Below, in pieces: positions 24,532 to 47,727 of a stretch of 64,000 nucleotides of DNA (positions are counted from its first letter, which is position 1; each line of letters starts with the position of its first letter). The DNA is taken from the IMG/VR virus record IMGVR_UViG_3300001486_000425; one strand, 5' to 3'. Source of the DNA: an uncultured virus (IMG/VR IMGVR_UViG_3300001486_000425). Taxonomy: Duplodnaviria; Heunggongvirae; Uroviricota; Caudoviricetes. The notes below the pieces were generated by a model. The model did not search any database and was not told the origin of the DNA. It worked only from the letters and a program-made list of their open reading frames with translations. The position numbers and the translations under genes are program-made.

Positions 24532-25044
24532 TTAATTTATAATCTTTTCCATTACCCAATGACTTTTAAATTCATCATCCATATGCATATATACTCCAAC
24601 TTGAATATCTAATACATTAGTAGGATCATCTTTATCAATTAAGTGTAATACGTGACCTTCATTTACATTATACTTTACACCATTTATATCAATTTCATAC
24701 ATTGCTTCTTCACCACGATGAAGATTTTTTACTGTTCTAGGACCATCTGGACCTTCAACAATATCTCCAACTTCAATATCATTTGACATTTTATATCGTG
24801 TATTTAAAGGCAAATCTTTTCTATCTTCAGCTTCAGTAATACTAAAAGCAAGTAATTTTTGATTATTTTCAGAAATTTGATCCATAAAAAAATAATTATT
24901 CAGAAATATATGCCAAAAATCTAAATAATCTTTAATATTTACTCTAATTGGTTTATGATTATAATTCTTAAATAAACAAAGTTTAAATGTATTATCTACA
25001 TACATAAAACTTTTATCTGAAAATGTTATCTTGTACTCCACCAT
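24532..25044 (-). CDS. Stand-alone partial Hint-domain (intein middle fragment) protein
   Basis: KMSNDIEVGDIVEGPDGPRTVKNLHRGEEAMYEI...VNEGHVLHL matches the intein N-terminal region including the block B His; no N-terminal Cys and no C-terminal HN. Confidence 0.8.
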   Translation of the reverse strand: MVEYKITFSDKSFMYVDNTFKLCLFKNYNHKPIRVNIKDYLDFWHIFLNNYFFMDQISENNQKLLAFSITEAEDRKDLPLNTRYKMSNDIEVGDIVEGPDGPRTVKNLHRGEEAMYEIDINGVKYNVNEGHVLHLIDKDDPTNVLDIQVGVYMHMDDEFKSHWVMEKIIN

Positions 25045-26279
25045 CTTAATTCTTCCTTTGTCTTAGGTATTTTAAGTTTTGTTGATTTACTTAACTTTTT
25101 AAGAGCTCTTTTTACAGTTGATTCAATACATTGTTTTGTTACTCCAAACATTTCACCAATTTCAACATATGTTTTAGGATTATCATCATCCCAGCCGTAT
25201 CTAAGCTTAACCATTATTCTTTCTCTTTTATTAAGTTTTTGGTTCATAACTTCTTCAATTTGATCTCTAAGTACTAATCTATCTGTATAACTCTCTGGTG
25301 ATTCTGTTTCTTTATCCTCAAGAAATTCATATAGATTATCATCTTCATTTTCACCAGTAGGTGTATCAATAGAAATAAGTTCAGTTTGATATATAAATAA
25401 GAACTTTTTTGCTTGTGCTGCAGTAAGAGGAGGTTTTACACCATCTCTTCTTTTAACATTTTTATTAAGATCATTCTTGTTACAATAATCTGCGATTTCT
25501 TCAAATGTTGGTTCTTTACCTGTTTTATTCATTAAAGCGGATTTTGCTTTAAGAACTGCAAGTGCTTGTTCAGTTGTATGTATCGGTATTCTAATTGTTT
25601 TACCATTATTTGCAATTGCAGTCTTAATACCATTAATAATCCACCAAACTGCATATGTAGCGAATCTAAATCCCATGGTATAATCAAATTTATCTAATGC
25701 AATAAGTAAACCAGTATTACCTTCTTGAATAATATCCATTATACTTAACTTTAATGACTTATTTGCGTATTTTCTAGCACAAAATAATACAAGTCTTAAA
25801 TTTCTTTCAATTAATTCTTGCTTTGCACTTTCATCACCATTATGATATTTCTTAAAAAGTTCTACTTCTTCTTCTTTAGTAAGATTTTTTCTTTTAATTG
25901 CAGAAACATCACCTATATATAAATTAAGAATATAATCACTAGAAGTATTAATTTCAGTATAGTTTGATGCCTTATCTTCTTCTTCAATTTCTTTTTCAAT
26001 TTCCTCTACTTCTTCTAAAGTAGTCATTTCAGAAGTATCATATTCAGCATCTTCTTCTTCAATAGTTTGATCTTCTTTATTTTCATTAAACTTTGCAAAA
26101 GCGTCAGTCTTTGGTATATTAGTTACTTTAATATTATTATCTATTAACCAATCAATAGACTCTACAAGATAATTTGTAGTTCTAAAATCCTTATTTCTAA
26201 AAATAATATTTTTTAGTTCAGGAAAATCAATTTTCTGAACATTAAGATTTTTTAATTTACGTTCCAACTTCTTATTCAT
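25026..26279 (-). CDS. RpoD/SigA-like sigma70 factor
   Basis: LIERNLRLV, DIIQEGNTGL, FDYTMGFRFATYAVWWI, TIRIPIH; region 4 HTH. Confidence 0.93.
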   Translation of the reverse strand: MNKKLERKLKNLNVQKIDFPELKNIIFRNKDFRTTNYLVESIDWLIDNNIKVTNIPKTDAFAKFNENKEDQTIEEEDAEYDTSEMTTLEEVEEIEKEIEEEDKASNYTEINTSSDYILNLYIGDVSAIKRKNLTKEEEVELFKKYHNGDESAKQELIERNLRLVLFCARKYANKSLKLSIMDIIQEGNTGLLIALDKFDYTMGFRFATYAVWWIINGIKTAIANNGKTIRIPIHTTEQALAVLKAKSALMNKTGKEPTFEEIADYCNKNDLNKNVKRRDGVKPPLTAAQAKKFLFIYQTELISIDTPTGENEDDNLYEFLEDKETESPESYTDRLVLRDQIEEVMNQKLNKRERIMVKLRYGWDDDNPKTYVEIGEMFGVTKQCIESTVKRALKKLSKSTKLKIPKTKEELRWWSTR

Positions 26280-26281
26280 AT

Positions 26282-27532
26282 TTAAAATATATAATCCTTT
26301 TTATAATTATCATCTGAAAAATCACAAAATGAATTAGATGTAAAATACGCTTTCAATAAATTACCAACACTACCTCTTTTTAGCTTTGCACAAGCTCTTT
26401 TTTCCATTTGTTGAACAGCTTGATGTTTTACTCCAAATTCTTGCGCAAGATCAGTTAATGTTCTAAAATTATGTTCTGGATTTAATCCATATCTTTGTCT
26501 AATAATATAACATTCTTTTTTATTCAATATAGTAGGTAAAAGTTTATTAATTTTTTCAAGCAAATCATCTCTTTCAATTTCAGTATTTGGAGAATATTCA
26601 GTAGATGGAATAAAATCTCCAAGATCAGAATCTTTATCTTCTCCAATTTGAGTATTTAATGAAATTATTTTAGAATTAATTAGATCTCTTGCAAAATTTA
26701 TATAATCTTCATTTATATTTAGTCTATAACAAATCTTATAACCGCGCGTAGCTAAAATTTTTACAATTTCTGCATTTGTTGGAGATTGTCCTTTTTCTTT
26801 TTCAAATTTATTTATTACGTAGTTAACATTTTTAATTAAATCTACAACCCAACTAGGATATTTAATTGTTCTACCTTCAGTTGCAATTATTCTTAAAATT
26901 TTACTTCTTATCCATTTTTCAGCATAAGTACTAAATTTAAGATTTCTAGATAAATCAAAACGCTTTAATGCTTCAAGAAGTCCCATATTTCCTTCTTGAA
27001 TTAAATCATCTAGAGCAAGACTACAATCGTATCTGTCATTATAGTATTTAGCAATTTTTACTACTAAAAGTAAATTGTGGTAAATAAGCTCATCACGAGC
27101 TTCTAAATCACCACTTTGTGCTTTTCTAATATATTCATATTCAGTTTCTTTATCTAATACCGAAGTATCAAGTACATCAAGATCTCTAAAATATTGTACT
27201 ATTGCACGTGGTATTGAATTTAAAGTAATCTTTTCAATTTCTTCTAATTCTTCTTTATCTACCTCAGTTTCTTCTTCAATAATTGAATCGTCTATATCAT
27301 CTTCTAGCTCAAGTATTTCATCAAATACGTTTGGTTTTGCTTTTGTTTTTGTTTCTTCTATTATTTTTATATTTTTATTTTTTAAATAATCAATAGCAGC
27401 ATTTAGTATTGATTCTTTATTTGCATACTTTTTATTAGTCGCTAACAAAGATTTCAATTCTTTTATATGAATTTCTTTCTTTGGTAAAGACTTAAGTATG
27501 TTATCAAGTCTAGTCTGTAAATCCTTTGACAT
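26282..27532 (-). CDS. RpoD/SigA-like sigma70 factor (second copy)
   Basis: NLLLVVKIAK, DLIQEGNMGLLEALKRFD, KFSTYAEKWIR; region 4 HTH. Confidence 0.93.
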   Translation of the reverse strand: MSKDLQTRLDNILKSLPKKEIHIKELKSLLATNKKYANKESILNAAIDYLKNKNIKIIEETKTKAKPNVFDEILELEDDIDDSIIEEETEVDKEELEEIEKITLNSIPRAIVQYFRDLDVLDTSVLDKETEYEYIRKAQSGDLEARDELIYHNLLLVVKIAKYYNDRYDCSLALDDLIQEGNMGLLEALKRFDLSRNLKFSTYAEKWIRSKILRIIATEGRTIKYPSWVVDLIKNVNYVINKFEKEKGQSPTNAEIVKILATRGYKICYRLNINEDYINFARDLINSKIISLNTQIGEDKDSDLGDFIPSTEYSPNTEIERDDLLEKINKLLPTILNKKECYIIRQRYGLNPEHNFRTLTDLAQEFGVKHQAVQQMEKRACAKLKRGSVGNLLKAYFTSNSFCDFSDDNYKKDYIF

Positions 27533-32297: not shown

Positions 32298-33473
32298 TTA
32301 TTCTTCTTCATCAATATCTTCTCTATCTACTAAATTACCATTTTCATCTATACGTTTCTTTGTAAGTGGATTTGATGAAATTAATTTTTCATCATAATTT
32401 GATTTAATATGTATAACACCATTTCTATTTTTTCTATCTATAAAGAAACATACACCTTTAGGTAACTGTGTAATTGCGGTTACTATATTATCTTCATCAA
32501 TAGACTGAGACGCATCAAGCGCACCAGTATTAAATAATTCTAAAAATTGTCGCGCTTCTTCAATTGAAGATTTAAATATAAATTTTGAAGTAATATAATT
32601 TGCAATATTTTTAGGAAATTGTGAAATACCTTGAGACGCAAGTACAGTTGCAGTATTTAATGCACGACCTAATGTTAAAAATTTATTAATAACACTTGCC
32701 ATTTGCCTATTATTAAATAATATATGCGCCTCATCACAAATTAATACTTTAGGTGTTTTTTCATTATCTTGTAATATATCTAATAATTTTGATGCAATAA
32801 TATAAATAATTGTAGAAGTAAATCTATCATTTGCATCATAATCTTCAACACGTTTACTACAATCAGGTAATTCCATACCATGTAATGTAATTATAATAGA
32901 CTTATCTTTTGATAATACAAGTGGTTTAGCCTCTGTATCATATGTAAATAAAAGTTTACCATATTTATTATCTGCATATAATAAAAGTTTTTGACCCATT
33001 GTTCTTGATTCAACATCTGATTTACTTAAAAGATAATTTCCAAAATCTAATAAATCTATATGTTCATTACGCTTATTTTTAATTACAAAGTCTTTTACTT
33101 TTGGAATAAGTGCATCTTCATCTGCTTTATCTAATTTACCTAATAATAATTGAATAATTGATGTTATTGTTGCTGAGTCTGGATATTCAAAAGAACCATC
33201 TGGTTTTTCTTTCTTTAAAAATTCAAATGGATTTAATGCACCAGGTCTAATATAGTTAACATCTACAACTTCAATATTAGGATTAATATTATAAATTGCT
33301 CCTAAGTCATTTTTAGGATCAATTGCAATAACTCTTTGTCCCATTCCTAATGCATTTGCAGCAATATTTACTAAAAAGAATGTTTTACCTGAACCAGGAG
33401 ATCCTAAAATAATTGTTCCAGGTGCGTCATTTTTTAATTGTGCAGTAGTAGGTAGCCATTTAATTGTACTCAT
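32298..33473 (-). CDS. VirB4/TcpF/ConE-like conjugation ATPase (ATPase domain only)
   Basis: ILGSPGSGKT, AIDPKND, LNPF, ICDEAH, GRALN...LASQ. Confidence 0.8.
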   Translation of the reverse strand: MSTIKWLPTTAQLKNDAPGTIILGSPGSGKTFFLVNIAANALGMGQRVIAIDPKNDLGAIYNINPNIEVVDVNYIRPGALNPFEFLKKEKPDGSFEYPDSATITSIIQLLLGKLDKADEDALIPKVKDFVIKNKRNEHIDLLDFGNYLLSKSDVESRTMGQKLLLYADNKYGKLLFTYDTEAKPLVLSKDKSIIITLHGMELPDCSKRVEDYDANDRFTSTIIYIIASKLLDILQDNEKTPKVLICDEAHILFNNRQMASVINKFLTLGRALNTATVLASQGISQFPKNIANYITSKFIFKSSIEEARQFLELFNTGALDASQSIDEDNIVTAITQLPKGVCFFIDRKNRNGVIHIKSNYDEKLISSNPLTKKRIDENGNLVDREDIDEEE

Positions 33474-33682: not shown

Positions 33683-34849
33683 TTATTTCAATTGTGATAA
33701 CAAGATATTACTTGCTTTAGTATAAATTTCATTATATTCTTCTCTACTTAATGTTCCTTTTACAAAATAAAAACCATCATAAACATTTAAAGTTTGAACA
33801 TTAAGATCTTTTAATAATTTCAACATTAATATATGTAAATTTGATTCATAAATAAAAATATCAGCCTTATAAAATTTATTAAGACCTAATACTTTATGCA
33901 TTGAATTGCGAATTGTATCTAATATATTCCAGATTGGTCTCTGAAGTCTTTCCTCAAGCCAAATATAAGAATTATATTGTTCTCTATCTGTTTTATTAAA
34001 AATATACTTCCATGACTTCTGAGAATTATATTGTAAACATCTATATTTAAGAGAACTTTCTCGCATATAAATAGGCATCAAAATTTTCTTAAATATACTA
34101 CGTAATTCATCATTCCATTCTAAATCAAAATTGCATTCTTTAAAAATTACTTCATACATATCCATATCTAAAGGTGCACAATAACCATGACCTAAAGCAT
34201 ATGACAATCTGTAAATACTTGCATTTGTATCATATTCAATTATATCAGATTCAGTTTTAAAATAGTTTTTTAAAATCTTAATTCTAGTATTATTTGGATC
34301 ATGACTCTGATTTCTAGTTGAACATAAATTACTTACAAGTCGCTTTTTATCTTGATTCAAATATTTCAATGGTATTACATTATTATTAACTTTATCAAGT
34401 AATTTAATGTAATAAACATTTTCTTTTTTAAGTATATCTATTTTATTTTGAGATTTTTTATCAATTATAAGTTTATCTTCTAAATTAGTTGGATTTTTAA
34501 TAAAATTCATATATTCATGATATAAGTTAATTAAGTTATCAATATCATTTAAAAGATCTGCTCCAACTTCAGATTTAATATATTCATTAATTTTATCATT
34601 ATTTACTTCATATATGTTAGATAACCAATTATTTTTTGTATGTTTATTATAAATTCTTACAGAACCAATTATTTTAATATATCCTAGCTCTTTTGCTTTA
34701 CTAAAATGTCTTGCAACTGTTCTATGTGAAATATCTAAAAATGAAGCAAAAGTTAATTGATTCAAAATTATATTTTCTTCTGTACAGGATACGCTATACG
34801 CAAGAATCAATTGTAATACGTTAATAAATTTACTAGGTTTTGTTTTCAT
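33683..34849 (-). CDS. HTH plus A-family polymerase-palm-like protein (possible replication protein)
   Basis: N-terminal HTH (QLTFASFLDISHRTVARHFSKAKELGYI); IIEYDTNAS, FIYES and NVYDGF resemble palm motifs. Confidence 0.5.
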   Translation of the reverse strand: MKTKPSKFINVLQLILAYSVSCTEENIILNQLTFASFLDISHRTVARHFSKAKELGYIKIIGSVRIYNKHTKNNWLSNIYEVNNDKINEYIKSEVGADLLNDIDNLINLYHEYMNFIKNPTNLEDKLIIDKKSQNKIDILKKENVYYIKLLDKVNNNVIPLKYLNQDKKRLVSNLCSTRNQSHDPNNTRIKILKNYFKTESDIIEYDTNASIYRLSYALGHGYCAPLDMDMYEVIFKECNFDLEWNDELRSIFKKILMPIYMRESSLKYRCLQYNSQKSWKYIFNKTDREQYNSYIWLEERLQRPIWNILDTIRNSMHKVLGLNKFYKADIFIYESNLHILMLKLLKDLNVQTLNVYDGFYFVKGTLSREEYNEIYTKASNILLSQLK

Positions 34850-34859
34850 ATAACGTATC

Positions 34860-35035
34860 CTCCTTTCAATAAATTTTTGCAGTAATGTATAATAATAATT
34901 ATTATTATTATTTAATTATTATTATTATTTATATAATATTGTGTCTCTACTTGTATCTATATATATCAAATAAGTATGACAATTCTCCACGTAATACAAA
35001 ATTATTACATTTGTATTACGTTAATTATGGAAAAT
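34860..35035. other. AT-rich non-coding region with (TAT/AAT)n tracts and a 12-bp inverted repeat; possible origin
   Basis: ACGTAATACAAA (34989-35000) and TTTGTATTACGT (35010-35021); near-pure A/T tract at about 34888-34940. Confidence 0.4.
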
Positions 35036-35040
35036 ATAAA

Positions 35041-35485
35041 TTATAATTCTTCAAATTTTTGATCTTTTCTGCTATCTATTTCTGCGTGTTGACCATCAAA
35101 ATCAATAACTGTTTTAGAGTTTGTATTATCTAACTCTATATTACCTTCAAGAATTATATCTTCTTTCTCTTGAGGTTGACTATCTAAATAACCTAATTTA
35201 TTTAGACCTCTTTGTTTAAAATATGTATCGACAATCCAACTTTGATTCTCAAAATAATATTGTACACGTGCAATTTCACCTTGCATTTTAGTGATACCAG
35301 CACCTTTATGAGAACCATCAATTGTTGTACCAAGCGTAGAACCTAATGCCATTTGTGAAGGAATATTTTCCAGTCTTCCACAAACTACTTGGTTGGTTCT
35401 ATACTCTAGCACCGCAATTATGTGTAAAAATTGCATTTTTAGTGCTAGAATATAGACCATCACCTCTCTTTCTTATTTTTCTCAT
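35041..35485 (-). CDS. Split-intein C-fragment plus C-terminal fragment of an FtsK/TcpA-like ATPase, interrupted by a 16-nt gap (35386-35401)
   Basis: GGAGG RBS; ATG at 35485 gives MRKIRKRGDGLYSSTKNAIFTHN|CGARV*; a shifted frame continues VCGRLENIPSQMALG...KGAG. Confidence 0.72.
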
Positions 35486-35727
35486 AAATTACCTCCATAA
35501 TTTTCTTTCAATATTACCATTTATACTCCTCATCATTAGGATTCTTTGACAGTATTTAGTATGTTTCTCTCATTTCAGATTGTTCTAGTTTAGGTAAATT
35601 TAGAGGTTTAGATATATTTAATTTATAATTTATAAATAATATACCAATTATACTTGCTATTAAAATAATAGTACAAATTATAATAGAAATTATTATCACT
35701 TTTGTATTAAATGATTTATTTTTCATA

Positions 35728-36126
35728 TTAAAAATCCCTAACTGTACCCATTAATTCACTAGAACCAACACGCTTCTTATCTTTTGCTAGTTCAACATAC
35801 TTTGAAAGCATATTTTTAACATTTTTAGCATTAGGAATGTTTTTTAATTCCAAATAAGGAGTGCTTTGATCTGCAGCTCTTAATTTAACTGTACCAAGTT
35901 TAAACATTCTTTGAATTACATTTCTAGTTAAAGTAATGTCTAATACCCTATATAATAATATTTCTTCTTGTTTTTGTACTAATAATCCAGAGTCAATTAA
36001 GAGTTTATCTTCAGTAAGACTATATGTAGTAAAAGTCCATGGAAGTCCAAATAGTGCCCAGCGTTTCTTTTCTGACCACTTTACCTCTTCTTCAGATTCG
36101 TAAATTTTACTCATAATTTCCTCCAA
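35728..36126 (-). CDS. Bacterial PH-domain protein
   Basis: YSLTEDKLLIDSGLL...LYRVLDI...QRMFKLGTV. Confidence 0.8.
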   Translation of the reverse strand: MEEIMSKIYESEEEVKWSEKKRWALFGLPWTFTTYSLTEDKLLIDSGLLVQKQEEILLYRVLDITLTRNVIQRMFKLGTVKLRAADQSTPYLELKNIPNAKNVKNMLSKYVELAKDKKRVGSSELMGTVRDF

Positions 36127-41684: not shown

Positions 41685-43964
41685 TTAAATATGATTATCT
41701 GCGAATTCTTCAAATTCTTCTAAAGGCATAGGTTTTGCAAAATAATAACCTTGGAATAATACACTTCCCATATCAATTAGGTCACTATATTGTTTTAATG
41801 TTTCTACACCTTCAGTAAGAGTTGTAAGATGTAAATCATTTGAAAGATTTATTACATTTTTAACAATTGTTTTTGATCTTTCATTTTCATCTTTAGATAA
41901 GAAGTTCATATCAATCTTTAATACATCGACTGGAAGATCTTTTAATAAATTCAATGATGAGAATCCACTGCCAAAATCATCCATTTCTACTATAAATCCT
42001 TTTTCTCTTAAAGTGTTAAATATTTTTAACTTTTCTTCTTGATCTGTCATCATAGCAGTTTCAGTGATTTCTATTCTTAATTTTTTAGACTCAATTTCAA
42101 ATTCTTCTACTAAATCTGTAATAACTTGAATAACATCTAAGAAATAGAAATCTTTTGGTGAAATATTGATTGATAAAAATAAATTTGGATATTTTGTTTT
42201 CCAAGACTGAAGTATTTCACATACATGTCTCCATATATGTTTATCTACTTCAGCAATCATACCATTTTTCTCAAATATAGGAATAAATTTTCCAGGAGGC
42301 ATAAAACCAAGCTCTGGATGAATCCATCTTGCTAAAGCTTCTGCACCTACAACTTTTCCATATACGTCAGTAATTGGTTGCAAGTATGGTATAATTTGAT
42401 CCTCATTTAATGCCTTTGATAATCCAATTGCAAGTTGTTGTTCTTCTAAGATATTTTGACGTAATTTTTCATCATAAAATTTTATTGTTGTTTTATAATT
42501 TTCTGTAATTATCAATACTGCAAGATGTGCTCTATCAAACATTACAGATGGATCTAATTTTTTATCTAAGATCTTATAAACTCCAATATGAATACACAAT
42601 TGATGTTCAGTATATTTATTTGCTTTAATTTTAAAATTAGAGAACATATTCATGAATAGTTTATCATTATACATTTCAGTAGGCATAAATATACCAAATG
42701 TATCTCCAACTAATCTTGCAATAATAACATCTTCGCCTTTAATTTTATCTTTTAATATATTTGCAATCTTAATTAAGGCTCTATCACCAAATTTAGTACC
42801 AAATATATCATTTATAATTTTAAAGTTTTTAACATTAAGATATATTGCACAATAGTCTTTATCTTTATTTACAGCAATTATTTCTCGCATTAGTTTATAA
42901 AGAGTTGTTACATTATAAAGACCTGTAAGTCTATCATGCATAGACTCGTATAATTCTTTATCAACTGCTTTTTTACGTTCAGTATTATCTTCAATAACCA
43001 AGAATGAACCTTCTAATTTATCAATTGAGTTAACTGATTTCTTTTCTAATGTAAAATATCTATCAGTTTCTTTAACATAAATTTTTTCTGTCCATTCTTC
43101 ACCTTTATTTGAAAGATCTCCAAACATTTCAAATAAATTATCTTTTAATTTTGTTACATCTCCTCTAGTATTTAATAATTTATGCGCATTTTCATTTGCC
43201 CAAATACATTTATTATAATCATCAAATACTAAAATAGCATCATTTAAGTTAGATGTAACATTCATAAGTAATGTATCTAATAATTTCATTGGTTTATATT
43301 TAATAGCAAAGAAATAAATACAAACACCTGTTATTGCATGTGCAATAACTGCACCATCAATACTAGATTTTAAAATAATAAATATAGCTTGTGATATACC
43401 ACCGACTATTAATGTTATTAGTATAACCCAATATTTTTCTTTATATAATCTTGATGATTTTATTACACCTAATGTAAAGATTAATAATACTGCAAAAAAT
43501 AATCCATAATTGATAATTCTATGTATAGTTAATCCTATTAATGGAGTTGCTTTATAATATACACTATTATCTATTATTATTTCATTTAATTTTATAATGT
43601 GTTTTGTAAATAATCCAATATTTAATTGTAATATATCTAATCCACCTATAATATATAACTTAATAGGTTTACCATGCTTTTTCTTTTTATCAATATCTTG
43701 ACAATAACAATTTGTAAATGCTATTAAAGATATTAATGTAAGAGTCATTCCGTTATAATAAAAATAATATCCAACAAGCGATAATGTCCTATTCGTTGAT
43801 ATATTAACTATAAAATTCGCAGCACAAATAATTGCAATTGATAAATTAAAATAAATAATATATTTTGAACTAGGTTTTTTAGCTTGACGTGCTTTATATA
43901 CACAAACAAGCTGTATTATTGTACAAATTATAAATAATAAAGTATAAATATTACGAATACCCAT
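41685..43964 (-). CDS. Multi-TM sensor-PAS-degenerate GGDEF-EAL c-di-GMP phosphodiesterase
   Basis: N-terminal TM helices; HDRLTGLYN; VGDTF replaces GGDEF; AEALARW, EITE, MDDFGSGFSS, EGVE, FQGYYF. Confidence 0.9.
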   Translation of the reverse strand: MGIRNIYTLLFIICTIIQLVCVYKARQAKKPSSKYIIYFNLSIAIICAANFIVNISTNRTLSLVGYYFYYNGMTLTLISLIAFTNCYCQDIDKKKKHGKPIKLYIIGGLDILQLNIGLFTKHIIKLNEIIIDNSVYYKATPLIGLTIHRIINYGLFFAVLLIFTLGVIKSSRLYKEKYWVILITLIVGGISQAIFIILKSSIDGAVIAHAITGVCIYFFAIKYKPMKLLDTLLMNVTSNLNDAILVFDDYNKCIWANENAHKLLNTRGDVTKLKDNLFEMFGDLSNKGEEWTEKIYVKETDRYFTLEKKSVNSIDKLEGSFLVIEDNTERKKAVDKELYESMHDRLTGLYNVTTLYKLMREIIAVNKDKDYCAIYLNVKNFKIINDIFGTKFGDRALIKIANILKDKIKGEDVIIARLVGDTFGIFMPTEMYNDKLFMNMFSNFKIKANKYTEHQLCIHIGVYKILDKKLDPSVMFDRAHLAVLIITENYKTTIKFYDEKLRQNILEEQQLAIGLSKALNEDQIIPYLQPITDVYGKVVGAEALARWIHPELGFMPPGKFIPIFEKNGMIAEVDKHIWRHVCEILQSWKTKYPNLFLSINISPKDFYFLDVIQVITDLVEEFEIESKKLRIEITETAMMTDQEEKLKIFNTLREKGFIVEMDDFGSGFSSLNLLKDLPVDVLKIDMNFLSKDENERSKTIVKNVINLSNDLHLTTLTEGVETLKQYSDLIDMGSVLFQGYYFAKPMPLEEFEEFADNHI

Positions 43965-43977
43965 ATATTATACCTCC

Positions 43978-45411
43978 TTATCTATAACTTCCATGTTGCA
44001 TTTTAAACTTAGTCTTATTCTCGTACATATGTTTATCAGCACGCTTAAAGACAAGTTCTGCAGTATTATCATCAGATGAAAGCTCAGCCATACCACAAGA
44101 TGCAGATAATTTTTCCCAAGGTATATCAGACTCTTTATTATAAGAAACTTCAAATGCTTTTTCAAGCTCTTCAAATTTTTGTTGTCTATCTATATAATCT
44201 TGATTTTCAACAATTATTACAAATTCGTCACCACCAATTCTATAAACTGGTGAATGTTTAAAAACTTTACAAATTAATTGACAACAACCTTGTAAATAAT
44301 AATCTCCAGCTTTATGACCAAACTTATCATTCATTGCTTTAAGATCATTAATATCTATCATAACAATTGCATAATCATGTGGATTATTATTTAAATCTAG
44401 CATCTTTTGCATATACGCTGCTTTATTTCCTACATGAGTTAATGCATCTTTATAAGAAACAATATTTAAATGGTTAATCTGGCTATCTTTTTGAGAAATA
44501 CTACTAGACATTTCATTAATATCCTTTAAATAGTCAACAATTTTTAATTGATTTGCTCTAATATTATTATAAATCTCACCAATTTCATCATCACGATCCA
44601 TATTGAGACTTATAACATTTGCATCAATAGAATTTAATCCAGCTGGATTAAATAATTTAATTGCATCTGCAATTTCTTTAAGTGGTTTAATAAGATTTTT
44701 TGAAATAATAAATAAACCAACAATAATTACAATAATTGTTGTAGTAACTACTACAACTACATTAATAATTAATGAACGAATTTTCGCATTTGCAATATTA
44801 GAATAATCTACATCACAACCAACTATACAAACGCAATTTCCATTACTATCATAAACAGGCGCAAAGTCAGAAACTAACCAACCCCAAGTATCACTATATG
44901 AAATATCTGGATCAATTTTTGTAAGATCTTTACCTAAATATACATCTTCTCTATCTTCCCATCGACCAGCTGCCTCATATAATGTTTGTTTAGAATCATC
45001 AATCATATACATATCTTGTACAGCATTTTCATCACCATGTGCTACAATATATACATATTTGACTTCATCCATATTATTAATATATTTAGTTAATGCATTA
45101 CGAATATTACAATATTCTTCCCACATACCTTTTGATTCAAGATAATCTTGAATTAATTGTTCATTTTTTTCTTTAGTTGCTTTTGTATGTATTGCTTGAT
45201 ATTCATCGGATTCAAGTAATACTCTTAATTTTCCTAAATAATCACCATCAAGTGTAGAGGCAAAATTAGTAGCATTTTCAGAAGTAATATTTTTATAAAG
45301 TCTATCTATTTGTCTAGCATTTGTCATATATGATGAGACAATTGCACCAATAGAAATAGCCAAAACTATACTAATTACAAAAACATATAGCTTACGTTTT
45401 ATGCTTTTCAT
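43978..45411 (-). CDS. Membrane diguanylate cyclase (sensor-HAMP-GGDEF)
   Basis: Two TMs, RDDEIGE, DALTHVGN, NDKFGHKAGD, RIGGDEF intact. Confidence 0.92.
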   Translation of the reverse strand: MKSIKRKLYVFVISIVLAISIGAIVSSYMTNARQIDRLYKNITSENATNFASTLDGDYLGKLRVLLESDEYQAIHTKATKEKNEQLIQDYLESKGMWEEYCNIRNALTKYINNMDEVKYVYIVAHGDENAVQDMYMIDDSKQTLYEAAGRWEDREDVYLGKDLTKIDPDISYSDTWGWLVSDFAPVYDSNGNCVCIVGCDVDYSNIANAKIRSLIINVVVVVTTTIIVIIVGLFIISKNLIKPLKEIADAIKLFNPAGLNSIDANVISLNMDRDDEIGEIYNNIRANQLKIVDYLKDINEMSSSISQKDSQINHLNIVSYKDALTHVGNKAAYMQKMLDLNNNPHDYAIVMIDINDLKAMNDKFGHKAGDYYLQGCCQLICKVFKHSPVYRIGGDEFVIIVENQDYIDRQQKFEELEKAFEVSYNKESDIPWEKLSASCGMAELSSDDNTAELVFKRADKHMYENKTKFKMQHGSYR

Positions 45412-45456
45412 AATTTACCTCCTTATTTTAATATTATAAATAAATTTTTTCAAAAG

Positions 45457-47727
45457 TTAACTAATTTTTAAACAAAAATCTTCAAAATCATATGTACTTA
45501 ATGGTTTATTGAAGAAATAACCTTGGAATAATTGACATCCAAAACCTTTTAACATATCATATTGATCTTCAGTTTCTACACCTTCAATTAAAGGTGTAAT
45601 TTGTAAATCTCTAGCTAATCTGACTATATTTTTAATAATAATATTAGCACGTTTACTATCTTTTGACAAGAATTGCATGTCAATTTTAAGTACATCTACA
45701 GGCATATCCTTTAAAAGATTAAGTGAAGAATATCCTGAGCCAAAGTCATCCATTTCAACAATAAATCCTATTGCTTTTAATTCTTTAAGAATTACCATTT
45801 TTTCTTCAACATTAGACATCATCGTTGATTCTGTAATTTCGATTCTAAGTTTTCTAGGATCCAAATTATATTGATTTATTAAACCCTTTAATTCACTTAA
45901 TACATCAATAAAATAAAAGTCAATAGGAGAAATGTTAATTGATAAGAATAAATATTTAAAATTTGTATCTTTCCATTTATATAATGTTTCACAAGCGCAT
46001 TTCCAAATATACTTATCAATATCTGCAATAAGACCATTCTTTTCGAATATAGTTACAAAGTCACTCGGATTAAGTAAACCATATTCAGGATGTACCCATC
46101 TTACTAATGCTTCAGCTCCAACTATTGTATAATTATTATCTACAATAGGTTGATAGAATGGCTGAATCTCATTTTTAGTAATAGCTTCATATATTTCATT
46201 TGTATATTTTTGTTCTTTTACTACATCATTTCTTAAATTATCATCGTAATGTTTAATATCTGTTTTATAATTACTATTAATTGAAGAAACTGCTAAGTGA
46301 GCTCTATCAAACATAGTTGCAATATCAACAAACTTATCTGTAATTTCATATACACCAATATGTACTGAAATTCTATGCTTAATATTTTTGCCTTCAATTG
46401 AAAAATCTGCTAATTCATTTAAGAATGCAGCTTCATTATAATTTGATTGTTTTATAAAAATACCAAAAGTATCTCCAACAAGTCTACCAGTAGTTGCAAT
46501 ATTTTTAAATTTTTCTTGTAACCATTGACCAAATTGTTTTAAGACCATATCTCCAAAACGTCTACCAAATATATCATTTACAACTTTAAAGTTTTTAATA
46601 TTTATATAAATAATGCTATAATTATCACTTGTAGTATTAAGTGCATTTTCAATATAGTTATAAAGATATGCCATATTATATAATCCAGTTAATTCATCAT
46701 GCGTAGCATCATATCTTTCTTTTTCAACTGTTTTGAATCTTTCAGTATCATCTTTTATTACAACATAATAACCATCTAATAATTTATTATTTGTTTTTAC
46801 AGCTCTTTTTTCTATAATAAAATGTTTATCTGGAGTATTTACAACTGAAGTCCATTTATCACTTTTATCTGCAATAGCACCAAATGTGTCTATAAATGCT
46901 TGTTTAACTGCTTTTAAATTATGTTTAATTCCTAATAAAGCATAACCATTTTCATTTACATATATACATTTATCTGTATTATCAAATATAAAAACTGAAT
47001 CATCCATATCTGAAATAATTGATGATAATAACGTATCAAGTAATTTTAAAGGCTGATATAAAATAGATAAATAAAATACAATAACACCAAATAAACTATG
47101 TACTATAATTGATCTATCAATTGGAATTTTTGAATAGATAAATATTCCTTGTGCTATTCCAGCTAGTATTAAAATTGACAAAATAGTTAAATATTTTTCT
47201 TTATATAATTTTGCAGCTTTTACACTACATACAATATAAGTAATAAGAATACATCCATACATAATATATGTTAATGCTCTATGTAAAATTAAACCAAAAG
47301 AAGACATATCCATATAGAATATCTCTTTGTTGTCTAATATTACCTTTTGCACTGAAAAAATATGATGTATAAATATACCTAAAACTAATTGAAATATATC
47401 AAATATTCCAATAATATAAATTAAATAAAATTTATTATGTTTTCTTTCTGGTTCAACACCTTTACAATATATTACAGTAAAATACGCTAATGCAATTAAA
47501 ATTAATGTCATTCCAATATATGACATATAATATCCAACTGTTGCTGAAGCCTCATTACTTGCTCTTAATATAATTAAATTACCAATAATTGGTAACATAA
47601 TTGAAATATTTAACCATCCAGTATATTTACCTATATTTTTCTTAGATCTAAAAGATAATATTGAACATGTAATTTGTATTAATAATAAAAATATAAACAA
47701 GATACTATATTTATCTTGCATGTTCAT
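45457..47727 (-). CDS. Multi-TM sensor-PAS-degenerate GGDEF-EAL phosphodiesterase (paralog of 41685-43964)
   Basis: VGDTF, AEALVRW, MDDFGSGYSS, EGVE, FQGYFF. Confidence 0.9.
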   Translation of the reverse strand: MNMQDKYSILFIFLLLIQITCSILSFRSKKNIGKYTGWLNISIMLPIIGNLIILRASNEASATVGYYMSYIGMTLILIALAYFTVIYCKGVEPERKHNKFYLIYIIGIFDIFQLVLGIFIHHIFSVQKVILDNKEIFYMDMSSFGLILHRALTYIMYGCILITYIVCSVKAAKLYKEKYLTILSILILAGIAQGIFIYSKIPIDRSIIVHSLFGVIVFYLSILYQPLKLLDTLLSSIISDMDDSVFIFDNTDKCIYVNENGYALLGIKHNLKAVKQAFIDTFGAIADKSDKWTSVVNTPDKHFIIEKRAVKTNNKLLDGYYVVIKDDTERFKTVEKERYDATHDELTGLYNMAYLYNYIENALNTTSDNYSIIYINIKNFKVVNDIFGRRFGDMVLKQFGQWLQEKFKNIATTGRLVGDTFGIFIKQSNYNEAAFLNELADFSIEGKNIKHRISVHIGVYEITDKFVDIATMFDRAHLAVSSINSNYKTDIKHYDDNLRNDVVKEQKYTNEIYEAITKNEIQPFYQPIVDNNYTIVGAEALVRWVHPEYGLLNPSDFVTIFEKNGLIADIDKYIWKCACETLYKWKDTNFKYLFLSINISPIDFYFIDVLSELKGLINQYNLDPRKLRIEITESTMMSNVEEKMVILKELKAIGFIVEMDDFGSGYSSLNLLKDMPVDVLKIDMQFLSKDSKRANIIIKNIVRLARDLQITPLIEGVETEDQYDMLKGFGCQLFQGYFFNKPLSTYDFEDFCLKIS

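Follow-up and report, generated by a model that had tools for sequence, protein, structure and literature searches.

A candidate translational bypass in a fractured FtsK/SpoIIIE-type ATPase gene of a giant rumen phage and its interrupted relatives

Described bypassing systems and comparison with the phage locus

To our knowledge, natural bypassing is known in very few systems, namely T4 gene 60 and its homologs, a Streptomyces phage terminase and the mitochondria of one yeast. The inserts in Magnusiomyces capitatus mitochondria are roughly 27-55 nt in length. The origin of translational bypassing is still debated. Low-level, short tRNA hops over stops were reportedly obtained by Weiss et al. 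in 1987 in E. coli reporters, using artificial constructs.

The locus analyzed here lies in a window of 64,000 nucleotides of DNA from an uncultured virus of the Caudoviricetes (IMG/VR record IMGVR_UViG_3300001486_000425). On its minus strand, positions 35485-35041 probably form one cistron that is read by translational bypassing (peptidyl-tRNA hopping). If true, this would be a rare natural case of bypassing, in a gene of a giant rumen phage (megaphage). In the literature search, none of the papers found linked bypassing or hopping to megaphages, jumbo phages, rumen phages or this gene family. Conservation of the gap in related elements had been suggested as a check in the initial annotation, and of 25 related loci, 16 have the same gene interrupted; the break lies at either of two sites, which are four codons apart. 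Two loci are redundant, since L006 duplicates the window at 100% identity and L012 and L003 are one and the same contig; without L006 and L012, 14 of 23 loci are interrupted. Twelve gap types were distinguished, with lengths of 4, 6, 6, 8, 9, 10, 12, 14, 14, 15, 16 and 38 nt. Hops of a few nucleotides between matched codons flanking a stop would be common to this family and the reporters of Weiss et al.; in contrast to those constructs, most members of the present gene family carry the arrangement naturally, and it is conserved.

T4 gene 60 and MobA share with this family the matched or wobble-matched take-off and landing codons and the stop (or rare) codon in the A site (bioRxiv 10.1101/2022.08.31.505936). 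Further likenesses are two neighbouring take-off codons within a family, a scanned part of the gap that is free of premature landing triplets, and a location in a phage gene that a homing endonuclease element has invaded, with foreign DNA in a conserved coding stretch and an unchanged protein. The hairpin of L022, which contains the take-off codon and UAG, resembles the take-off stem-loop outlined there for gene 60. The differences from that description are considerable. The interrupted gene is a piece of an FtsK-type ATPase behind an intein tail, compared to a topoisomerase large-subunit gene, and a single homologous cassette of ~50 nt contrasts with 12 unlike types of 4-38 nt. The short gaps lack a significant stem-loop, and no Shine-Dalgarno-like element was seen in the gaps. 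The endonuclease is of a different family (phrog_3339/DUF7487), with no copy beside the window's gene, and bypassing is here a prediction. A homologous T4 gene 60/MobA cassette was rejected on account of the other gene, the dissimilar gaps and the phrog_3339/DUF7487 neighbour.

For the terminase of Streptomyces phage phiHau3, the report describes 10-nt inserts that are bypassed at the rare sense codon UUA, with a proposed regulatory role, and a junction peptide seen by mass spectrometry in E. coli (PMC10732093). Both cases have short inserts in a phage ATPase-type gene, a slow A-site codon, a landing codon and a conserved protein that is restored (PMC10732093). The trigger there is UUA, whereas here it is always a stop codon, and the hop is here a prediction (PMC10732093). 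The mitochondria of M. capitatus resemble the phage family in their many different inserts and in the tolerance of wobble or larger mismatches (cited in PMC10732093 and bioRxiv 10.1101/2022.08.31.505936). The inserts there are also richer in G+C than the AT-rich genome, and the G+C content of the phage gaps is 33-57%, compared to 27% for the genome. In contrast, the system described there is mitochondrial, with longer inserts spread over many genes, and here two codons of one gene are affected.

Fractured genes have been described in which the intein is split and a free-standing homing endonuclease gene lies between the two halves (PMC2677866). The present gene is similar to these in that the extein gene is split at the intein and an endonuclease gene lies directly ahead of the C-intein piece in 8 of 25 loci. 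It differs from the cases outlined there by a very short C-terminal tail of 15-37 residues, a Hint core that is a third, separate ORF in genome G000, and a coding gap in the C-extein; splicing is putative.

The 16-nt gap and the layout of the gene

On the minus strand, the site reads AGA GTA (35404-35402) TAG (35401-35399) AACCAACCAA (35398-35389) GTA (35388-35386) GTT TGT GGA AGA. The letters, including the recurrence of GTA after 16 nt, exactly matched those of the initial annotation when re-read. A Shine-Dalgarno sequence GGAGG (35492..35496) is located 6 nt 5′ of the ATG of the upstream ORF, and a GGAGG-type RBS with an ATG also precedes the N-terminal ORF in the interrupted relatives. From the ATG at 35485, frame 0 encodes 28 residues ending in ...THNCGARV before the stop codon. 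Codons 1-23 (35417..35485; M...AIFTHN) were missed in the first reading of the sequence and represent a predicted block G-like intein C-terminal tail ending in His-Asn. They are followed by CGARV (codons 24-28, 35402..35416), the first five C-extein residues, of which C24 aligns with the +1 extein Cys.

The last sense codon, GTA at 35404-35402, is the candidate take-off codon, and the TAG (35399..35401) lies immediately 3′ of it. TAG is the rarest stop in the window's genome, where it terminates 26 of 643 ORFs. The coding gap (35386..35401) consists of TAG, AACCAACCAA and the landing GTA. Its length of 16 nt places the downstream part in the +1 frame, and the distance from the F codon to the C codon is 46 nt in the window versus 30 nt in intact loci. 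No GTN triplet was found inside the window's gap ahead of the landing GTA. The resumed frame (35041..35385; VCGRLE...KFEEL) was assigned by homolog comparison to the C-terminal region of an FtsK/SpoIIIE-type ATPase; 113 codons remain from the second GTA, and the stop is at 35043-35041. The frame displaced by one base reads ...VVCGRLENIPSQMALG... up to this same stop.

The 16-nt gap is genuine. In a 5265-nt DNA contig of run X2, from a different sample, the gap sequence is identical with 0 differences. The 8855-nt DNA contig of run X3, from a different study, carries SNPs at 35423 and 35440, and 35386-35404 is free of them. From RNA library X8, into which carry-over of DNA is possible, a 240-nt contig spans 35212-35451 with 0 differences and 0 gaps. 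The coverage of RNA run X12 is limited to 35464-35887, and the gap site is outside of it. No joints or indels were reported in the matching contigs of the runs. An assembly error, which had been listed as an alternative, is contradicted because the gap recurs unchanged in the DNA contigs of two other samples and in an RNA-library contig.

Judged from its homologs, the gene is the last piece of a fractured FtsK/SpoIIIE-type ATPase behind an intein tail. A scan of 16 homologs identified the Pfam domain FtsK_SpoIIIE in 10 (E 1e-12 to 1e-22). No more than ~10 residues separate the end of this domain from the matched region in P0182, P0184 and P0186, which are contiguous, and in P0168, which matches the FtsK structure 2iuu at 1.6e-9, an intein is found between the two. 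A likeness to FtsK/TcpA/Orf21-type ATPases, suggested in the initial annotation, holds at the superfamily level, with FtsK_SpoIIIE directly ahead in the full-length homologs; the window ORF itself is only a C-terminal piece, with no Pfam hit and no P-loop. The short protein gave nothing in Pfam, PHROGs or NCBIfam and no usable match in the ESM Atlas, and the short family (A2), searched as a profile against the PDB, returned only a chance-level match (E 0.41). The AlphaFold2 model of the intact homolog P0003 (44 sequences) was poor, with a pLDDT of 52 and a pTM of 0.27.

The tail aligns with the C-terminal end of the Hint/intein domain in longer homologs, where ...IFTHN or ...IYTHN precedes C. 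The N and C of this His-Asn-Cys junction are invariant in 44 intact sequences. Matches to the Hint domain are weak (Pfam Intein_splicing 1e-4, below its cutoff; PDB intein matches 3e-4 to 1e-3), as are the PDB profile matches to the gp41-1 and DnaB inteins. Partner N-exteins were located in G000, where the exon 151406-151456 reads IIQNN followed by PLSLDTLVEVKN, and in G002, where the ORF 97063-97461 ends in IIQNN followed by PLSIDTLVEVKD. The first intein residue in the partner genes is Pro, not Cys or Ser. The C-terminal HN before C and the partner N-extein point to a split intein in a fractured gene, with putative splicing. In the window's phage, the ATPase is present in at least four scattered pieces, one of which contains three group II introns; the function of the whole ATPase is not assured.

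Codons, spacing and selection in the interrupted family

A stop codon opens all 12 gap types, right behind the last sense codon (TAG in 8, TGA in 3 and TAA in 1); stop triplets represent ~7.9% of the window's triplets. The take-off codons of the family encode Val, Ile, Met or Asn. The landing codon is identical to the take-off codon in 5 of 12 types, more often than by chance (binomial P 1e-5 at p = 0.028 per pair), and is read by the same tRNA in 7 of 12. With G·U allowed, 10 of 12 landing codons, read by eye, are able to pair at all three positions. A cognate landing codon is absent in 5 of 12 types, two of which have a mismatch in the middle position (ATT to AGC and ATG to ACG). No premature cognate triplet was found before the landing codon across the gaps, except for ATC inside the L022 hairpin. 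The site-1 gaps are positioned precisely between HN and C. Some gaps are seemingly related, the window's to that of L007 and the three containing GGCC to one another, and the 12 types are thus not 12 independent events. The matched 3-nt repeats could be duplications formed as the insertions arose.

Removal of the gap and the landing codon restores the 30-nt spacing found in 9 of 9 intact loci. Exactly two residues separate R from (C/A)GR in all 49 intact protein clusters and in the 9 intact loci. This spacing favors the proposal of the initial annotation that a GTA-to-GTA bypass would give ...ARVVCGR..., without a gap relative to intact relatives.

All interrupted loci keep the ATG and RBS as well as the full C part of 113-115 codons, and no second lesion was found in any of the 16. 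The pN/pS ratio of the N-terminal ORF was 0.23 in frame 0 compared to 1.07 and 0.99 in the shifted frames (7 interrupted loci, pS up to 0.8). Selection downstream of the gap, which the initial annotation had proposed to examine, was assessed over the 11 codons past the landing codon, where pN/pS was 0.29 for interrupted and 0.27 for intact loci. Both flanks of the gap are under purifying selection (pN/pS 0.23-0.29). Furthermore, the frame-0 SNPs of the diverged strain are synonymous (codon 21 in the X3 strain; the P0002 variant, its codons read by eye).

The 38-nt gap of L022 is predicted to form a hairpin enclosing AUU-UAG, with an MFE of -17.4 kcal/mol and a z of -2.13. Local RNA structure was not significant at the window's gap (z -0.38) and four other short gaps, with z between -0.63 and +0.72 overall, and no Shine-Dalgarno-like element was found inside the short gaps. 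Any bypass may therefore be inefficient.

About 70 of 120 protein clusters are interrupted. Among the database entries, 71 of 120 clusters were not called as an intact protein; the start lies at the internal Met in 47 and at the gap in 8, and the remaining 16 are mis-called in other ways. Gene callers thus truncate or mis-frame most family members, and similar cases in metagenomes have probably been overlooked. A tblastn search of GenBank phages with P0003 gave no match. Split tblastn hits among G000, G001 and G002 yielded 32 candidates for other bypass-like gaps, and none of the 13 inspected had the design of a stop plus matched codons. The candidates were accounted for by antisense ORFs spanning gene junctions, by endonuclease pseudogenes and tRNA regions, and by a single 5-nt deletion and a single poly-A frameshift.

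The proposed hop, its origin and alternative readings

In the preferred reading, ribosomes would start at the ATG at 35485, decode 28 codons and pause with peptidyl-tRNA-Val on GUA (35404-35402) and UAG in the A site. The peptidyl-tRNA would un-pair, the mRNA would slide by 16 nt, and re-pairing would occur at GUA (35388-35386), from where decoding would pick up again at GUU. The predicted product, ...CGARV-VCGRLE..., corresponds to that of the uninterrupted homologs and joins the intein tail (...THN before C) to the C-terminal ATPase piece. A gap present in DNA and in an RNA-library contig, a landing codon that permits re-pairing and a stop in the A site after take-off are the features of the site that bear on such a hop. 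The analysis shows the gap in DNA and in an RNA-library contig, the pattern across the family and the selection on the flanks; the hop itself and its efficiency are inferred. The exactly restored spacing and the equal constraint on the two flanks speak indirectly for a single polypeptide across the gap.

The window's gap is located five codons inside the C-extein, beside the intein insertion (homing) site. Directly upstream of the gene, a homing endonuclease gene (phrog_3339/DUF7487, E down to 5e-46) was found in 8 of 25 loci. The intein tail ahead of the gaps and the adjoining endonuclease gene in these loci place the gaps at the intein homing site. The endonuclease gene is adjacent in 7 of 16 interrupted and 1 of 9 intact loci, counts that are too small to claim an association. 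The window's gene has no adjoining copy, the nearest being ~41 kb away. A recombination junction was identified at the gap region of L014, which is L010-like upstream and L013-like downstream.

It is conceivable, and we put it forward tentatively, that hopping is a general rescue device of this gene family. Recurrent small insertions at the homing site would spoil the target of the endonuclease, and only hoppable ones, with a stop codon first and a re-pairing codon last, would survive. The link of the gaps to endonuclease immunity is inferential. The result would be an allelic series of gaps of 4-38 nt in three frame classes, mostly without an obvious RNA stimulator. As a natural series at one site, with Val, Ile, Met and Asn take-offs, TAG, TGA and TAA stops and intact alleles as controls, it would bear directly on the minimum requirement for a ribosome hop, on the tolerance of landing mismatches and on whether bypass gaps are a by-product of homing endonuclease versus target conflict.

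A rather unlikely alternative is the production of two polypeptides without a covalent join, the first stopping at TAG (intein tail plus CGARV) and the C part being translated on its own, either after re-initiation close to the gap or from an out-of-frame start further upstream. Among the landing codons, ATT, a rare start codon, occurs four times; GTA, AGC, ACG and GTC, however, are not start codons, and no RBS precedes the landing codons. A stop right behind the last codon would also suit termination followed by re-initiation, but the matched codons would be left unexplained. The ATPase is already split elsewhere, and split phage genes can work in pieces, as in the MobA and MobE cases (bioRxiv 10.1101/2022.08.31.505936). 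A C-extein severed from the ...HN tail, however, could not be spliced, which matters most for the site-1 gaps between HN and C. Selective constraint on the 11 codons from the gap to the first Met is as strong as that in intact genes, and initiation at that Met is therefore excluded.

It is unlikely that the gene is dead, with the gap as a scar of endonuclease cutting or a random insertion and a non-functional piece whose decay is yet to come. The locus is crowded with selfish elements, and in G000 the ATPase is broken into many pieces. On the tree, interrupted alleles are mixed with intact ones, and many interruptions could thus be recent. However, interruption affects 14-16 of 23-25 loci and ~70 of 120 protein clusters in the samples covered. 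All interrupted loci examined are broken at the same two codons, and every gap has the stop first, for which the chance, from the triplet counts, is ~0.079^7 for the 7 frame-shifting types alone. The absence of a second lesion in 16 loci, the low pN/pS on both sides among interrupted alleles at a pS of 0.5-0.8 and the synonymous frame-0 SNPs of the diverged strain also argue against a dead gene. The private inactivating insertion considered in the initial annotation is disfavored by the 16 of 25 interrupted loci and the purifying selection on the flanks.

A +1 frameshift of the shifty-stop kind at GTA-TAG, which would give ...ARV-RTNQV-VCGR... with five extra residues, is very improbable. As in prfB, +1 shifts are known to be stimulated by a stop in the A site; the 16 nt correspond to +1 mod 3, and the frame is open when read in this way. 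However, tRNA-Val on GUA would need to re-pair with UAU, and the would-be residues of the gap are not conserved between relatives. The frameshift had been offered as an alternative earlier, but its five added residues occur in no homolog: a sense-codon insertion at the gap site was found in 0 of 49 intact protein clusters and 0 of 9 intact loci. The gaps of the relatives are 0, +1 or +2 mod 3, some with in-frame stops, so the mechanism they share cannot be a frameshift of constant size. Since the lengths span all three classes and the gap of L007 holds both TGA and TAA in frame, no single frameshift or stop reassignment explains all loci. No evidence was found for an artefact of sequencing or assembly, or for RNA-level loss of the 16 nt, and either has a negligible probability given the same sequence in two further DNA runs (one belonging to a different study), the RNA-library contig that keeps the gap, the lack of a homopolymer at the gap permitting transcriptional slippage and the lack of an Rfam match at the gathering threshold in the window.

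Stop-codon reassignment (code 15 or code 4) was rejected, since the standard code fits, no tRNA with a CUA anticodon was found in G000, G001 or G002, and the window's gap shifts the frame. ORFs of at least 100 aa in code 11 cover 86-94% of these three genomes. A code with TAG read as Q would fit the database proteins P0011, P0014, P0020, P0042 and P0043, which have Q at the gap. It was rejected for G000, G001 and G002. In L016/L017, TAG terminates the gene itself, and a call with TAG as Q runs past the normal C-terminus. G001 has a tRNA with the anticodon UUA, which might read the in-frame TAG of G001.

The gap in its genome and in independent assemblies

A Shine-Dalgarno sequence GGAGG (35496-35492, minus strand) is located six bases ahead of the ATG at 35485. 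The frame 0 ORF starting there comprises 28 residues, ending ...FTHNCGARV, and is then closed by a stop. The 16-nt gap with matched flanking codons described in the initial annotation proved exact: the minus strand reads AGA GTA (GTA at 35404-35402), TAG (35401-35399), AACCAACCAA (35398-35389) and GTA (35388-35386), followed by GTT TGT GGA AGA. A second frame, displaced by one base, is already open ahead of the gap, continues to the stop at 35043-35041 (minus strand) and encodes ...VVCGRLENIPSQMALG....

The window is the reverse strand of 182179-246178 in a complete virus record of 467,383 bp with direct terminal repeats (G000). With a G+C content of 27% and 56 tRNA genes in this record, the virus is therefore a megaphage. 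All runs holding the stretch are gut or rumen metagenomes from sheep, goats and cattle.

Logan contigs from four runs were compared with 34700-36100, and no indels or joints were reported in them over this range. A DNA contig of 5265 nt from another sample (run X2) covers the gap site with no differences. A DNA contig of 8855 nt from another study (X3) covers the whole range with SNPs at 35423 and 35440 and none in 35386-35404. At 35423 the SNP falls on the third position of codon 21 in frame 0 (ACA to ACG), where it is synonymous, but it would change a residue in the shifted frame. A 240-nt RNA-library contig from the same sample as the probable source (X8) spans 35212-35451 with no differences and no gaps; coverage in a second RNA run (X12) stops short of the gap site. 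The 16-nt gap is no artefact and is kept in RNA, though the X8 contig may derive from DNA. The assembly error considered earlier was thus not borne out by these three contigs; since the data are contigs, a rare gapless variant may still exist.

An ATPase piece behind an intein tail

The frameshift read-through (P0001), used as a protein query, matched 123 proteins at E ≤0.01, none with a Pfam domain; a full HMM search matched 102 proteins at E ≤1e-3. FtsK_SpoIIIE was identified in 10 of 16 proteins scanned from the HMM matches (1e-12 to 1e-22). It ends about 10 residues or less from the region matching the window's family in P0182, P0184 and P0186, which are contiguous homologs. An intein lies between the two in P0168, which matches FtsK structures (1.6e-9) and whose inserted domain matches the gp41-1 and DnaB inteins (3e-4 to 1e-3); LAGLIDADG or Hom_end domains lie in between in two scanned homologs. 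In alignment A3, whose profile matches the gp41-1 intein (6.9e-4), the longer homologs carry a domain of ~130 residues in front, ending ...IFTHN and followed by C. P0127 is without that domain, so that ...QLGRTAGIH...TQR...VIQNN runs straight into CQQRFVCGRLG; its Pfam FtsK_SpoIIIE match is near threshold (7.4e-5).

This domain layout and the FtsK and intein matches identify residues 1-23 of the window's protein as a short C-terminal intein tail ending His-Asn, with C24 as the first C-extein residue, and the remainder as the C-terminal part of an ATPase of FtsK/SpoIIIE type. The likeness to Tn916 Orf21/TcpA-type ATPases proposed in the initial annotation holds at the FtsK/SpoIIIE-type level. 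A complete AAA_10-type ATPase (Pfam 1.2e-36) is encoded at 32298-33473 (minus strand), 1.6 kb downstream of the interrupted gene; this separate ATPase does not supply the N-terminal part that the fractured FtsK-type one lacks.

Other pieces were located elsewhere in G000. A Hint core forms a separate ORF (140108-140485), and the preceding extein piece begins at 149244 and includes short exons at 150160-150204, 150762-150785 and 151406-151456; the third of these ends IIQNN|PLSLDTLVEVKN. Between the exons lie three ORF-less group II introns of ~637, 557 and 620 nt (G000:C1:149523-151405; locus L072 724-2606), which break ~100 nt of coding sequence. Each matches Rfam D1-D4 and D5/D6, all above gathering (RF02004 92.8, 51.9 and 91.0 bits; RF00029 50.5, 55.8 and 46.5 bits). 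A homing endonuclease gene follows 3′ of this piece (151567-152811). The G000 intein thus appears to be in three pieces, ~12 residues (PLSLDTLVEVKN), the stand-alone Hint core ORF and the ...FTHN tail (35417-35485); a natural three-piece split intein, if true, would be unusual. Its first residue is Pro, in which it resembles inteins without an N-terminal nucleophile (class 3, Trp/Cys/Thr motif).

In G002, one of two complete related megaphage genomes, the same extein piece is without introns and has endonuclease genes on its flanks. The start of one endonuclease ORF there (G002:C1:96157-97062) resembles the start of the next ATPase piece (97063-97461), MGWFD... versus MGWML..., which suggests insertion with a duplicated gene start, splitting the ATPase at a further point. 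In the other genome, G001, the N-extein piece (C1:180441-180037, complement) diverges from that of G002 after ...VLPG and ends ...CDLLSIEKIDLMIV versus IIQNN|PLSIDTLVEVKD, which could reflect a further small lesion or a recoding site.

Interruptions and constraint in related loci

The 120 clusters listed from the P0001 search were sorted by N-terminus: 49 were intact (...FTHNC..R..[C/A]GR...), 47 started at an internal Met (MMALG/MALG) and 8 at the residue adjoining the gap, and 16 had shifted-frame N-termini, Q called at an in-frame TAG, or were fragments. At the DNA level, 25 loci were compared, of which 3 are viral, 21 are metagenomic and one comes from a MAG with the label Bacilli. Measured from the F codon of FTHN to the C/A codon of [C/A]GR, the spacing is 30 nt in 9 loci and longer in 16, by 4, 6, 8, 9, 10, 12, 14, 15, 16 or 38 nt (alignment A4). 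Leaving out L006 (100% copy of the window) and L012 (the contig of L003), 14 of 23 loci are interrupted. Related elements, which the initial annotation had proposed to check, are thus interrupted as well; their gaps and the window's make up 12 distinct types, placed at two sites. Nine types lie at the window's site, after the codon following AR and five codons into the extein; three lie at site 1, after the Asn codon of THN, the exact intein/extein junction.

A stop immediately follows the last sense codon in all 12 types (TAG 8, TGA 3, TAA 1). Stop triplets make up ~7.9% of window triplets (10,075 of 128,000 positions, both strands), and the seven frame-shifting types could each run to any later stop, yet all halt at once. 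The last sense codon equals the landing codon in five types: the window has GTA/GTA, and L009, L013, L020 and L022 have ATT/ATT (binomial probability of at least five among 12, 1e-5; p = 0.028 per pair). Two more would land with the same tRNA (GTT/GTA in L007, ATT/ATC in L004). With codons read by eye, three further types pair at all positions with one G·U (ATT>GTC, AAT>AGC, AAC>AGC) and in two the middle position is mismatched (ATT>AGC, ATG>ACG). Ahead of the landing codon, the 12 types contain no cognate triplet except ATC in the hairpin of the 38-nt gap.

Deleting gap and landing codon restores the exact intact-gene spacing in every case, and no intact gene has extra sense codons at the gap site. 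Gap lengths span all three classes mod 3, and the L007 gap holds both TGA and TAA in frame; one single frameshift or stop reassignment cannot account for all gaps. The gaps of the window and L007 are alike (…CCAA…AAGTA, 16 versus 15 nt; A4), which points to a common origin, in which case the frame class changed while stop and landing codon were kept.

The interrupted genes are under selection. In 16 of 16 interrupted loci the ORF 5′ of the gap keeps its ATG and a GGAGG-type RBS, and the part 3′ of it is complete (113-115 codons) with no other lesions. For seven interrupted loci with alignable N-termini, pN/pS of the 5′ ORF was 0.23 in its own frame versus 1.07 and 0.99 in the shifted frames (pS up to 0.8). 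Past the gap, where the initial annotation had proposed to look for selection, constraint was confirmed: over the 11 codons from the landing codon to the first Met, pN/pS was 0.29 (12 gap types) versus 0.27 (8 intact loci). That Met is therefore not where translation of the 3′ part begins. Intact and interrupted alleles are intermixed in its tree.

These phages use the standard genetic code. Under code 11, stop-to-stop ORFs of ≥100 aa in G000 sum to 437.7 kb of 467.4 kb and end with TAA (501), TGA (116) or TAG (26). The in-frame TAG gaps of L003 and L004 belong to G001 and G002, where code 11 coverage is 86%. A TAG=Q code was rejected since no CUA-anticodon tRNA was found in the three genomes, TAG-as-sense gains no more coverage than TGA-as-sense in G001 and G002, and the gene itself terminates with TAG in L016/L017. 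The TAG=Q database protein extends past the C-terminus of its family. A UUA-anticodon tRNA of ochre-suppressor type in G001 (C1:114279-114350, complement) might read that genome's 6-nt TAG gap. The main stop codon of G001 is TAA despite this tRNA, and in G002 two tRNA-like genes show unusual anticodon loops.

Proposed bypassing, its rivals and homing endonucleases

Bypassing by peptidyl-tRNA re-pairing is the best-supported account of the gaps. In the window, with UAG in the A site, tRNA-Val on GUA would move to the next GUA, 16 nt on, and re-pair. The 38-nt gap of L022 folds into a hairpin holding AUU-UAG (MFE -17.4 kcal/mol, z -2.13; 5 of 200 shuffles fold as well); no significant RNA structure was found at the short gaps folded, including that of the window. 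The efficiency of bypassing may be low or dependent on the nascent peptide. Less supported is the production of two polypeptides instead of one, which leaves the matched codons and the site 1 gaps at HN|C unexplained. A dead gene, likewise less supported, would not explain why every gap opens with a stop, why the gaps fall at two fixed sites, why other lesions are lacking or why the gene is under selective constraint. A +1 frameshift at the window's gap is also less supported, as it would add five residues where homologs tolerate none and leaves the relatives' gaps unexplained.

The closest systems described in the sources consulted are T4 gene 60/MobA, the phiHau3 terminase inserts (PMC10732093) and the yeast mitochondrial inserts. 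In the literature searched, nothing was found on bypassing in megaphages or in this gene family; no GenBank phage was found to encode a counterpart of the window's protein. Bypassing here, if true, would add an independent case that extends across a gene family and comprises many short gap alleles. A screen of the three megaphage genomes (13 of 32 candidates inspected) found no other genes with this gap design.

In 8 of 25 loci the gene is immediately preceded by an ORF of 287-432 aa matching phrog_3339 "homing endonuclease" (2e-29 to 5e-46), phrog_559 HNH and Pfam DUF7487. Seven of these loci are interrupted; the exception, L015, is intact with an additional HNH gene downstream. By tblastn the endonuclease family occurs at 5 places in G000 and at 10 or more in both G001 and G002, the copy nearest the window's gene being ~41 kb off. 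L014 matches L010 at 97-99% in the upstream region and 5′ ORF, and L013 at 98-99% in the 3′ part and downstream, while the upstream regions of L013 and L014 are unalignable; the gap region is thus a recombination junction. The T4 bypass insert is described as shielding the MobA-bearing genome from nicking and as allowing foreign DNA in a conserved coding stretch with the protein unaltered (Manning and Atkins preprint, bioRxiv 10.1101/2022.08.31.505936). Similar protection may apply to the megaphage gaps, where the association is numerically weak.

In G000 the tRNA-Val(UAC) (C1:278966-279052), which would be the take-off tRNA at the window's gap, has 87 nt and a long variable arm; tRNA-Val has 75-76 nt in G001 and G002. 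The neighbouring tRNA-like gene (278224-278294) was called with a two-base anticodon. A tie between either gene and bypassing is pure speculation.

Two adjoining genes of 416-417 aa at 25026-27532 (minus strand) match phage RNA polymerase sigma factor families (phrog_351, E 1e-55 to 1e-61). Three adjoining large genes at 41685-47727 (minus strand) have GGDEF and/or EAL and a 7TM sensor domain; the megaphage therefore encodes cyclic-di-GMP turnover proteins.
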